DNA from: a virus
Taxonomy: Duplodnaviria; Heunggongvirae; Uroviricota; Caudoviricetes
IMG/VR virus record: IMGVR_UViG_2778261571_000007
DNA length: 12,976 nt
Direction: 5' to 3' (one strand)
A program made the position numbers and the translations under genes. Positions 1 through 1,294 of the stretch are shown in pieces. The notes beneath the pieces were generated by a model, which did not search any database, was not told where the DNA came from, and worked only from the letters and a program-made list of their open reading frames with translations. Within the stretch, counting starts at the first letter, position 1. Every line of letters starts with the position of its first letter.

Positions 1-28
1 AGGGACAGCTGATAGAAACAGAAGCCAC
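1..28 (-). CDS. insA: InsA (IS1) 5' fragment, cut by the window edge
   Basis: The reverse complement of 2-28 reads GTG GCT TCT GTT TCT ATC AGC TGT CCC, i.e. M-A-S-V-S-I-S-C-P, the InsA N-terminus. A GAGG Shine-Dalgarno lies upstream on the minus strand. Confidence 0.75.
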
Positions 29-310: not shown

Positions 311-385
311 AAATATTCACAGATAAAATAAACTCGCCGAATCAGGTTAAGTGTGGGTGCGTTGAGGATGCCTGACACATCAGAG

Positions 386-409
386 GCGGCGAGGGATTTC
401 TCCCTCGCC
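386..409 (-). terminator. Stem-loop immediately 3' of hok (GGCGAGGGA-TTTC-TCCCTCGCC); candidate hok mRNA 3' fold-back/terminator structure
   Basis: A 9-bp perfect inverted repeat with a 4-nt loop starts about 10 nt downstream of the hok stop codon on the minus strand. No clear U-tract follows, so function as an intrinsic terminator is uncertain. Confidence 0.4.
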
Positions 410-418
410 TAGTCACTC

Positions 419-574
419 TTACTCCTCAGGTTCGTAAGCTGTGAAGACAGCGACCTCCGTCTGACCGGTTCGGATTCGCACCTCGCAGAGGTCTTTCCTC
501 GTTACCAGTGCCGTCACTATGACGGTTAAACAGATGACAATCAGTGCGACTAACATCGCCTTTTGCTGCTTCAT
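419..574 (-). CDS. hok: Hok/Gef family type I toxin (51 aa, small membrane-damaging peptide)
   Basis: The translation MKQQKAMLVALIVICLTVIVTALVTRKDLCEVRIRTGQTEVAVFTAYEPEE matches the Hok/Gef signature (N-terminal transmembrane helix, conserved RKDLCE...R.G..EVA.F.AYE) and is near-identical in pattern to E. coli HokC/HokD as I recall them. ATG at 572-574 has a GGAG Shine-Dalgarno upstream. Confidence 0.9.
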   Translation of the reverse strand: MKQQKAMLVALIVICLTVIVTALVTRKDLCEVRIRTGQTEVAVFTAYEPEE

Positions 575-631
575 AGCCTGCTTCTCCTTGCCTTCCGGCG
601 CGTAAGAGGCTAACCTACATGTGCAAAGCAT
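419..631 (-). CDS. Mok-like in-frame upstream extension of hok (70 aa), putative translational-coupling ORF
   Basis: The ORF starts at the ATG at 631 and reads in frame into hok. Its N-terminal extension MLCTCRLASYAPEGKEKQA resembles the MokC extension pattern. Whether it is translated is not determinable from sequence. Confidence 0.45.
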   Translation of the reverse strand: MLCTCRLASYAPEGKEKQAMKQQKAMLVALIVICLTVIVTALVTRKDLCEVRIRTGQTEVAVFTAYEPEE

Positions 632-1294
632 GAAATTGGCCTCAGATTAATGTTAAGCGTCTTGCCGGACGCGTAATGTTATCTGGGGCTTTTCTCTATC
701 TGCCTTTGGTGTTCATGCCTGAGGCAGATAGCCTCAAGCACCCGCAGCAATTCTACTTAACTCCCGTCACCTCGCCAATATAAAATCAATCAGAAAGGCG
801 ATCCATAAGAACAACAGCAAGACAATAAATTGCCATTACAGCCGCAATAGCTAGCGCACATTTGAGAACCAGCACGACAACCTCCTGTATTGGACGTACA
901 CCAGTTCTGATAAATATGAGGCTGTCTCATCATTGATTCAATATAACTATTGGGTATAGTTTCTGTGATTTTGTTCTGTAGAAATGGAACACAACAACCA
1001 GTCACCACCAGCACTTCTTTAAATACGCCAAGTCCGACGCAAGCTAACCTTCTAGTCCGCTTTGAGCGAGGAGCGGACCAAACCCGGCCAACTGACTCTT
1101 AAAGGGGCCGCAGGAATTTTTCGTCTGAACTTTCGAAGCTCCTCTCCCTGAAGACAGAAAACTTCTGTGTGCTGTGGGAATATTGAATCTTTGCCTTAGA
1201 TATAAATAATTTTATCCCGCCTGAAGTTTACATTATTTTATTTATCTGTTTTTCTAAATCAGACTGCACTCCTTACTTAAATCAGGAGCCAGTC

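Follow-up and report, generated by a model that had tools for sequence, protein, structure and literature searches.

The results of this analysis indicate that positions 345-778 of a 12,976-nucleotide stretch of viral DNA (the whole of which is referred to here as the window) hold a hok/mok/sok type I toxin-antitoxin module that is complete, belongs to the hokW/hokD subfamily and is carried by a Rac-like lambdoid prophage, with a probability of about 0.9 given to this reading. The presence, position and conservation of every element were established in the window, alternative folds were predicted, and the sok promoter is identical to one that has been mutated experimentally. The features of the locus lie far beyond chance (E=2e-26 for the Rfam model RF01794, and no shuffled sequence folding as well as the hok mRNA or Sok). 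Overall, the copy is an ordinary, apparently intact example of a well-known module in a lambda-like prophage of E. coli. Its type is already known: hok is named in RefSeq, the enrichment of hok loci in prophages is known, and a 92%-identical relative has been characterised experimentally; the significance beyond annotation is therefore small.

The locus lies in the E. coli chromosome, flanked by the replication/cargo region on one side and the nin-region genes on the other, within the Rac-like lambdoid prophage; the preliminary description had called it chromosomal, which should read prophage-borne. The features named in that description are all in the sequence, with coordinates shifted by just 1-2 nt. 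The host prophage looks cryptic and rearranged and carries cargo genes and IS elements, and an IS1 is located about 270 nt downstream of the locus, outside the transcript elements. A permissive Rfam scan returned nothing else credible among other RNA families in 1-1300, and the small ORFs at 224-310 and 786-875 gave no Pfam or NCBIfam match. The elements on the hok strand are as follows.

750-778, minus strand: hok promoter, with a -35 TTGGCG at 778-773, a 17-nt spacer and a -10 TAGAAT at 755-750 (consensus scan, 9/12 matches).
345-743, minus strand: full-length hok mRNA, about 399 nt through fbi, from its fold and colinearity, with an uncertain exact 3' end.
732-743, minus strand: tac (translational activator element), GGGUGCUUGAGG, located at the 5' end of the mRNA and paired with fbi in the full-length MFE.
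696-731, minus strand: inner helix of the 5' tac stem-loop, 10-bp, CUAUCUGCCU at 731-722 with AGGCAGAUAG at 705-696, in the MFE of both the full mRNA and the leader.
685-694, minus strand: ucb (anti-SD), GAAAAGCCCC, its partner being the mok SD region when the mRNA is closed and tac when it is open.
606-643, minus strand: mok-SD/dcb stem with the Sok-target hairpin (GAGGC...GCCUC), from a constrained fold; third hairpin of RF01794.
419-631, minus strand: mok ORF, 70 aa, in frame with hok (ORF list; mokC/mokW geometry).
419-574, minus strand: hok ORF, 51 aa, MKQQKAMLVALIVICLTVIVTALVTRKDLCEVRIRTGQTEVAVFTAYEPEE (ORF list, Pfam, RefSeq).
388-409, minus strand: 3' stem-loop with a perfect 9-bp stem (388-396/401-409) and a 4-nt loop, an inverted repeat that is in the MFE.
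355-367, minus strand: fbi (fold-back inhibitory element), CCUCAACGCACCC, pairing with tac and conserved in related loci.
322-349, minus strand: hok intrinsic terminator, now a degraded remnant (AACCUGA-UUCG-GCGAGUU-UAUUUUAU), by comparison with related loci.

The intact Hok ORF and its in-frame Mok-like extension, both noticed earlier from the letters, were borne out on the minus strand. Hok matches Pfam HOK_GEF (PF01848) over the full profile (1-42/42) with 83.6 bits, the cut-off being 22, and the protein is HokD, WP_000813269.1, under RefSeq/PGAP naming; RefSeq annotates hok as hokD at this locus in many genomes. Against the NCBIfam Hok HMMs the protein fell under the strict cut-offs (49.1 vs 73), so the family assignment rests on Pfam and the RefSeq naming. 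The protein sequence shows a hydrophobic stretch, LVALIVICLTVIVTALV, as well as Cys30, and an SD, AAGGAG, precedes the hok ORF by about 9 nt. The mok SD (GAGG, 643-640) lies 8 nt upstream of its AUG at 631-629, and mok is the usual 19-codon in-frame extension of hok, kept in 59/66 distinct related copies and annotated with the same in-frame geometry for mokC and mokW. Across the 66 distinct copies, the hok coding sequence and all named elements are near-invariant.

Transcription of hok is predicted to start at G743, the base to which position 1 of the Rfam leader model aligns, and conservation of the hok -10 and +1 extends to 933W hokW and K-12 hokC. The full-length hok mRNA, which is colinear with 933W hokW (92.4% identity), K-12 hokC and R1 hok, has an MFE of -162.2 kcal/mol (z = -6.65, 0 shuffles as good) that contains both the tac/fbi and the ucb/SD pairing; the names of these elements follow PMC9841398, from which the ucb mechanism is also taken. 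In this fold the helices between ucb and the mok SD region are 694-691/635-632 and 689-687/641-639. Other states are predicted for shorter forms of the transcript: in the nascent 36 nt, tac and 715-725 form a metastable hairpin (-19.6), and in the isolated leader tac pairs with ucb (MFE -30.3). Once tac/ucb pairing is enforced in the truncated mRNA, the mok-SD/dcb stem appears just 1 kcal/mol above the MFE, with dcb (AGCCUC) at 611-606 and the 7-nt loop of the Sok-target hairpin, CUUUGCA, at 628-622. The UUUG of this loop would be a YUNR-type (U-turn) motif of the kind described by Franch et al. 1999. The open and closed forms of the truncated mRNA are within 1 kcal/mol of each other and the MFE slightly prefers the closed one, while the predicted P(unpaired) for the mok AUG increases from 0.08 to 0.57 once the mRNA is truncated.

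At the other end of the transcript, the 9-bp stem-loop seen after the hok stop is real, at 388-409 rather than the 386-409 first given, and it is conserved in K-12 hokD and 933W. By homology to R1, whose 3' hairpin has a protective role (PMC9841398), it would likewise protect the 3' end of the hok mRNA after processing (truncation). The pairing of tac with fbi (743-732 with 367-355) consists of GGGUGC/GCACCC and UUGAGG/CCUCAA, 6+6 bp with one bulge, and occurs in the centroid as well as in the MFE. Disrupted 5'/3' pairing elements had been named beforehand as a sign against a working locus; the pairing came out intact, since tac and fbi pair in the MFE. Because tac is invariant (61 distinct related loci) and fbi varies across relatives solely at the bulged base, covariation within the subfamily lends the tac/fbi pairing no support.

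The lost terminator after fbi is the sole defect in the window module. In about 65/76 related loci and in K-12 hokD, fbi is followed by a canonical terminator, AACCCGC-UUCG-GCGGGUU with a U-run (-12 to -15 kcal/mol), whereas the window version differs from it by 3 substitutions and folds at -2.0 kcal/mol; the consensus promoter/terminator scan called no terminator-like site downstream of fbi. These three substitutions destroy the terminator and thus leave the 3' end of the full-length hok mRNA undefined; read-through past it would run to about 108-91.

This loss is also the one point that speaks for decay in the choice, raised in the preliminary description, between a regulated toxin and a decayed copy whose pairing elements are here intact. 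The corresponding alternative is that the locus looks complete and is a decaying or inactive copy that has ceased to function as a regulated toxin-antitoxin pair, the conclusion reached for the chromosomal hok loci of K-12; native chromosomal hokA, hokB and hokC gave no post-segregational killing in earlier tests (summarised in bioRxiv 10.1101/2025.08.07.668861). Two related loci (L051 and L064) are intermediates in the terminator and one with the same flank (L011) is intact, suggesting stepwise decay in this sub-lineage, and both the IS1 insertion 270 nt downstream and the cryptic, rearranged look of the host prophage, with its cargo genes and IS elements, fit the same explanation. However, the IS1 is outside the transcript elements, and both promoters, tac, ucb, the mok SD and AUG, dcb, the hok SD and ORF, the 3' stem-loop, fbi and Sok are intact and match functional relatives. 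The K-12 loci bear obvious lesions (IS186 after hokC, the whole leader lost in hokD), none of which has a counterpart in the window. The post-fbi terminator is also not strictly family-defining, because 933W/Sp5 hokW works in its native prophage without the canonical hairpin. A decaying copy is therefore considered unlikely, and the complete hok/mok/sok module remains the preferred reading.

The antitoxin had been expected on the plus strand around 600-720 in the preliminary description, which could not confidently place a promoter or a terminator for it. Both were placed here by homology to sokC and sokW, and the gene is inside the expected range, opposite the mok start.

588-616, plus strand: sok promoter, with a -35 TTGCCT at 588-593, a 17-nt spacer and a -10 TAACCT at 611-616, by homology to R1 and 933W.
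623-693/699, plus strand: Sok RNA, starting at G623; K-12 sokC maps to 623-699 and 933W sokW to 623-693.
655-672, plus strand: 18-nt extension of the Sok hairpin tip, holding the palindrome GCGTC (657-661) / GACGC (668-672).

The sok promoter occupies the same position as that of R1 (TTGCGC-17-TATCCT) and is identical in sequence to that of 933W sokW; among 43 distinct sequences, TTG in the -35 and A2 and T6 in the -10 never vary. A consensus scan did not call it because the -10 matches the consensus at 3/6 positions, and the terminator was missed by the consensus promoter/terminator scan because its stem is long and interrupted. The placement of Sok instead follows from homology to the annotated sokC, the start of which maps to G623 in the comparison with hokC/sokC, and sokW, and from a published sokW promoter mutant: in the 'pro-less' mutant (primer YO-421), TAACCT was changed to GAGCCG and antitoxin activity was lost, while sokW RNA was seen on a northern blot with a probe that matches this region (PMC8621323).

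Sok would be 71 nt long if it ends after the UUUU at 693 (as sokW) or 77 nt if its end is at 699, as in sokC. A 9-nt single-stranded 5' tail (623-631) precedes a 27-bp interrupted hairpin (632-694), and a U-rich tail follows, an architecture found in all 43 distinct variants; the RNA folds at -30.6 kcal/mol (z = -4.5) with 0 shuffles as good. The predicted terminator is the long hairpin 638-690 followed by UUUUCUCU (UUUU), ending at 693-699. With 5-6 G.U pairs, the hairpin gains about 11 kcal/mol in stability on the Sok strand over the complement. A consensus hairpin across subfamilies (RNAalifold) showed compensatory changes at 2 pairs, a low number because hairpins of different length align poorly. 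Judged by its sequence, Sok is a putative cis-encoded antisense RNA of the mok initiation region. RefSeq E. coli genomes carry no annotation for the Sok RNAs of this very widespread prophage subfamily, and these RNAs can be placed reliably by homology.

The inverted repeat at 657-672 in the preliminary description is real and forms the tip of the Sok hairpin. The 18-nt tip is a hallmark of this prophage subfamily; it is missing from K-12 sokC and R1, and relative to the Rfam consensus it is an insertion. As a novelty it was dropped, a 57-nt stretch spanning it being present in 3312/5426 E. coli genomes and the tip itself occurring also in Shigella, E. albertii, E. ruysiae and Kluyvera. U682, which improves the Sok stem, looked unique in the viral-contig set but recurs in Kluyvera and other E. 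coli, and it is energetically neutral (-30.6 vs -30.2).

The second repeat that had been reported, at 695-704/720-729 (CTATCTGCCT/AGGCAGATAG), also exists, but its coordinates are 696-705/722-731 and it belongs to the hok leader, not to Sok. On the plus strand, both repeats lie downstream of the sok promoter, and each could form a hairpin in plus-strand RNA, which would allow an alternative in which both are Sok structure and Sok reaches about 730. This is very improbable: annotated sokC and sokW stop at the U-run equivalent to 693-699, ahead of the 696-705/722-731 repeat, the hairpin 638-690 with UUUUCUCU serves as the Sok terminator, and the 696-705/722-731 helix forms the inner stem that is conserved in the hok leader, being the first hairpin of the RF01794 consensus, the hairpin of the leader MFE and a part of every minus-strand fold. 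A Sok ending at 693-699 is accordingly retained.

The covariance-model search proposed in the preliminary description gave an RF01794 match that covers the whole hok leader (minus strand, 569-743, 116.1 bits, E=2e-26, gathering score 59, full length 1-157). Read literally, this would put the Sok antitoxin RNA at 569-743 on hok's own strand, in keeping with the name of the family ('sok antitoxin') and with its sole significant match being on the minus strand, but this reading has almost no chance of being correct, as the 3' end of the model falls on the hok start codon, the hairpins it describes are those of the tac and SD/dcb stems, it matches the hok-sense strand in five reference loci with sokC, sokB, sokE and sokW annotated opposite, its plus-strand match scores merely 19.9 bits, and the sok promoter and the G.U-rich hairpin are both on the plus strand. 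RF01794 thus reports the hok-sense leader and its strand should not be taken as that of the antitoxin, which in the preferred reading is encoded on the plus strand.

The first ~17 nt of Sok (623-640; the single-stranded tail and the start of the hairpin) are complementary to the mok start, including codons 2-5, and are the most variable segment of the transcript, with at least 10 discrete alleles shuffled against near-identical backbones. Co-resident copies carry distinct Sok tails (3/3 genomes, 5/5 pairs), a comparison that has no statistical power at 10 or more alleles. An apparent conservation of the hairpin 5' arm across genera proved to be an artefact of the search pattern and was discarded as evidence. 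It is possible, though somewhat doubtful, that the tail is an address cassette under diversifying selection. If so, the Sok of one prophage would not protect against the Hok of another, several hok/sok prophages in a cell would each enforce their own retention or induction-linked lysis, and the window allele (GCAAAG...) would be one specificity type.

A mechanism for the window copy, covering its transcription, processing, toxicity and biological role, can be proposed by homology to R1 hok/sok and Sp5/933W hokW-sokW. A stable hok mRNA would be made from the minus strand starting at G743, with tac kept in the metastable hairpin during synthesis. In the finished transcript, tac (743-732) would pair with fbi (367-355) and ucb (694-685) would mask the mok SD (643-640), a closed form barred to ribosomes and Sok alike. 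Slow 3' trimming back to the 409-388 stem-loop would remove fbi, upon which tac and ucb would pair and the mok SD/dcb stem would present the mok AUG region in the 7-nt loop. Translation of mok would be coupled to that of hok, and Hok (51 aa) would damage the inner membrane. From the plus strand, constitutive transcription from TTGCCT-17-TAACCT would supply Sok starting at G623, whose 9-nt single-stranded tail would contact the target loop before a duplex of 71-77 nt spreads across the mok SD and AUG, blocking translation and being cut by RNase III. Because Sok would be unstable, a loss of its transcription, through prophage induction or loss of the element, would lead to Hok being made.

Among known systems, R1 hok/mok/sok (parB) is the mechanistic paradigm: its tac, metastable hairpin, ucb, mok SD, dcb, 3' stem-loop and fbi can be aligned with the window, its Sok has a similar tail and hairpin, and its sok promoter is in the same position. 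It differs in a longer tac-stem loop, a short Sok hairpin, its plasmid location and its role in post-segregational killing, and HokW, a close relative of the window Hok, is 44% identical to R1 Hok (PMC8621323). A three-way alignment of the window, R1 and K-12 hokC has 67% mean column identity. The K-12 hokC (gef)/mokC/sokC locus shares the element order, the in-frame mok and the start of sokC (77% mean column identity), whereas sokC has a short hairpin and is 59 nt long without the 18-nt tip, IS186 directly after the hokC stop removes the 3' stem-loop and fbi, and the locus is chromosomal, not prophage-borne.

K-12 hokD (relF, Qin prophage) is likewise prophage-borne and has the same hok SD, 3' stem-loop and fbi; its hok CDS differs from that of the window at 6/156 nt, with one amino acid change (V9 for I9). 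Homology begins only about 16 nt upstream of the hok AUG, relBE sequence replacing the promoter, tac, ucb, mok start and sok that are complete in the window, while the canonical terminator, lost in the window, persists in K-12 hokD. K-12 hokD is a truncated remnant of the complete locus type seen in the window.

The 933W/Sp5 hokW/mokW/sokW locus (AF125520), which is also on a lambdoid prophage and also has an in-frame mok, is 92.4% identical in nucleotides across the whole transcript, with the same tac, ucb, dcb, 3' stem-loop and fbi. For sokW, the -35, spacer, -10 and start context are identical to the window and the long hairpin with the 18-nt tip is shared. The two loci differ in 7/17 of the first Sok nucleotides (GCAAAGCAUGAAAUUGG vs GUUCAGCAUGGAUUGAG) with mok codons 2-5, one base change in the Sok hairpin (U682 in the window vs A), the Hok C-terminus (HokD-like FTAYEPEE in the window vs FVDYESEK), the flanks, and the host prophage (Rac-like without stx vs the Stx2 phage 933W). 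Experimentally, hokW-sokW is a toxin-antitoxin system of type I; it needs RNase III as well as Hfq and is triggered when the prophage is induced (Takada et al. 2021, PMC8621323), and this 92%-identical relative lends indirect support, by analogy, to the transcription and instability of Sok, its repression of Hok and the toxicity of Hok that are proposed for the window copy.

The position of Sok, which the preliminary description had expected on the plus strand around 600-720 and left as an open point, is now resolved at 623-693/699 by homology to sokC and sokW; three independent lines agree on this placement (sokC, the sokW of phage 933W, and published experiments). The annotated 59-nt sokC of K-12 aligns to window 623-699. 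Phage 933W is 92.4% identical to window 345-763, and its record annotates mokW, hokW and a 'SokW antisense RNA' that maps to 623-693. The sokW RNA has been seen by northern blot and was inactivated by a promoter mutant, for which primer YO-421 shows TAACCT changed to GAGCCG (Takada et al. 2021, PMC8621323); the sokW probe of that study, YO-592, is complementary to an RNA beginning at the equivalent of window G623.

Features of the hok/mok/sok locus (window positions)
778-750, minus: hok promoter TTGGCG-17-TAGAAT, predicted +1 at G743
419-631, minus: mok ORF, 70 aa, in frame with hok
419-574, minus: hok ORF, 51 aa
388-396/401-409: stem-loop, 9 bp
322-349, minus: degraded terminator, three stem substitutions, -2.0 kcal/mol
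588-593, plus: sok -35, TTGCCT, equal to 933W sokW
611-616, plus: sok -10, TAACCT, 17-nt spacer from the -35, equal to 933W sokW
657-661/668-672: small palindrome
696-705/722-731: inverted repeat, CTATCTGCCT/AGGCAGATAG

The -35, the 17-nt spacer, the -10 and the ACATGT-G start context are all identical between the window and 933W sokW, and the R1 sok promoter (TTGCGC-17-TATCCT) falls in the same alignment columns. No variation occurs at the TTG of the -35, or at A2 and T6 of the -10, in 43 distinct sequences covering the region. A generic promoter scan did not call the sok promoter because its -10 matches the consensus at only 3/6 positions.

The covariance-model search returned a match to Rfam RF01794 at 743-569 (116.1 bits, E=2e-26), lying on the minus strand, the strand of hok, with the last model positions aligned to the hok start codon. 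RF01794 was also run on K-12 hokC, hokB and hokE, 933W hokW and an R1-type plasmid locus. In 6/6 loci (the window and the comparison loci L002, L005, L086, L087 and L089) the match was on the hok-sense strand and ran from the 5' leader up to the hok AUG, and the annotated sok (sokC, sokB, sokE, sokW) was on the opposite strand in 4/4 loci having one. Therefore, RF01794 models the hok mRNA leader despite its family name 'sok antitoxin'; the match is good evidence for the locus but no guide to the strand of Sok, and an automated RF01794 annotation would give 'sok' the wrong strand and the wrong extent.

The fold of Sok (623-699) consists of a single-stranded 5' tail of 9 nt, an interrupted hairpin of 27 bp and a U-rich tail (-30.6 kcal/mol, z = -4.5), an architecture seen in 43/43 variants, with the short-hairpin class, sokC and R1 Sok among them. 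Every variant (n=43) carries 4-7 G.U pairs in the hairpin, and the plus-strand hairpin exceeds its complement in stability by about 11 kcal/mol (mean -30.3 vs -19.2), an asymmetry expected from selection acting on the antisense RNA itself. The hairpin is kept in the consensus fold across Sok subfamilies, with compensatory changes at two pairs. Both inverted repeats previously linked to Sok are present within 2 nt of the coordinates first reported, and one of them belongs to it: the 657-672 palindrome is the Sok hairpin tip, inside an 18-nt extension that sokC, R1 and the Rfam consensus lack, whereas the 696-705/722-731 repeat lies beyond the Sok 3' end, in the hok leader, where it forms the inner helix of the tac stem-loop. 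The tip extension is not an unusual feature, as the 57-nt stretch spanning it occurs in 3312/5426 complete E. coli genomes and also in Shigella, E. albertii, E. ruysiae and several Kluyvera species. In one related locus (L009) the tip, GCGTCCTGCAAGACGC, is the exact reverse complement of the common GCGTCTTGCAGGACGC, which suggests that the quasi-palindromic tip has been inverted.

The intact Hok ORF and its in-frame Mok extension were confirmed, Hok scoring 83.6 bits against Pfam HOK_GEF (cut-off 22), as was the 9-bp stem-loop previously placed at 386-409. With element names taken from PMC9841398, the 5'/3' pairing elements of hok mRNA are also in place: in the full-length fold (z = -6.65), tac (743-732) pairs with fbi (367-355), ucb (694-685) with the mok Shine-Dalgarno (SD) region (643-639), and the mok AUG region with the 3' UTR. 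The nascent 36 nt form a metastable hairpin (-19.6 kcal/mol), and the isolated 60-nt leader forms the tac/ucb stem (-30.3 kcal/mol). When the mRNA is truncated just after the 409-388 stem-loop, an open form (tac/ucb stem, SD/dcb stem and a 7-nt target loop) comes within 1 kcal/mol of the closed form, and the unpaired probability of the mok AUG rises from 0.08 to 0.57. The Tyr47 codon of hok is UAC followed by G, giving a UACG motif (433-436, minus); TadA A-to-I editing of hokC, hokD and hokE mRNAs is reported to convert the equivalent Tyr to the Cys that the disulfide requires (bioRxiv 10.1101/2025.08.07.668861), and by analogy the window codon may be edited likewise.

A clean terminator (AACCCGC-UUCG-GCGGGUU, then a U-run, -12 to -15 kcal/mol) directly follows fbi in about 65/76 related loci and in K-12 hokD. 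In the window, three substitutions have cost this hairpin, and the minus strand offers no other terminator-like site before 108-91. Both the intact state and intermediate ones occur in relatives that share the downstream flank. The loss could be early decay; that the copy is inactive is nevertheless unlikely, as 933W hokW also lacks the canonical hairpin, yet works in its native prophage.

Surroundings of the locus (gene content from a genome colinear with the whole window)
One side of the locus: Rac-like prophage genes racC, kilR, sieB, ydaF and a YdaT-family gene
Between these and the hok locus: cargo block of BCCT transporter, DUF2254, LysR, gamma-glutamylcyclotransferase and MFS genes
Beyond the hok locus: IS1, then nin-region genes DUF1367, DUF1364 and DUF1133
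1-83: IS1 end, terminal part of the element
224-310, plus: 28-aa ORF MENNKSAHYAPFLSVILFVFCCVWALFL, good SD AAGGTGAG about 6 nt upstream of the ATG
786-875, minus: 29-aa hydrophobic ORF MLVLKCALAIAAVMAIYCLAVVLMDRLSD, GTG start, just upstream of the hok promoter

A 601-nt stretch around the locus is 100% identical to many complete E. coli chromosomes, where RefSeq annotates hokD (WP_000813269.1) at the matching site. The locus had been described as chromosomal; its gene setting, with Rac-like neighbours, shows that it is prophage-borne, in line with a reported prophage enrichment of hok (bioRxiv 10.1101/2025.08.07.668861). In the colinear genome S171-1, window 1-28 is overlapped by the CDS of the IS1A transposase; strain CP53, identical to the window from position 84 on, has no IS there. 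The IS1 insertion is therefore polymorphic. About 270 nt separate it from the hok fbi, and the module is left untouched.

The 224-310 ORF is convergent with hok, without RefSeq annotation or a match in Pfam and NCBIfam, and intact with 1-2 substitutions in three related viral contigs 4-10% diverged at the DNA level (L011, L051, L064). Any hok transcript reading past the degraded terminator would be antisense to it. The 786-875 ORF, without a family match and containing a terminator-like hairpin (832-851, minus), may be a chance ORF.

Across 66 distinct copies, the hok coding sequence is almost invariant and variability peaks at 640-621, a stretch that takes in the Sok 5' end (single-stranded tail and hairpin start), mok codons 2-5 and the target loop. 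This segment exists as 10 or more discrete alleles, which recombine with different backbones, hairpin variants and Hok C-termini. In three genomes carrying 2-3 copies, no two copies share a tail; co-resident copies all differ in E. coli ECMA0423, in S. flexneri SFBU1023 and in a tandem pair in L103. This pattern fits copy-specific addressing but is not significant because so many alleles circulate. L103 (Enterobacteriaceae MGYG-HGUT-00110; 846-866 and 1408-1428) carries two modules in tandem, about 560 nt apart, whose Sok tails differ and whose Hok proteins differ slightly. E. coli-type hok/sok with the long Sok hairpin also turns up under the names of unrelated taxa, in MAGs or short contigs assigned to Collinsella, Xanthomonas pisi, Scatousia, Haemophilus and Veillonella (L097, L098, L102, L105, L114), most likely because these assemblies are contaminated or mis-binned.

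Homology between K-12 hokD and the window is confined to a segment that starts about 16 nt before the hok AUG and ends just beyond fbi; upstream of it, K-12 hokD has relBE sequence. The window therefore carries the complete form, and K-12 hokD is a remnant of that form. In K-12 hokC the leader and sokC are retained, but an IS186 directly behind the stop codon has eliminated the 3' stem-loop and fbi. The window has neither lesion. Overall, the preliminary interpretation is supported, and the locus is a standard, apparently intact and already known member of a well-described family, whose closest relative, 933W hokW/sokW, is 92% identical and experimentally characterised.
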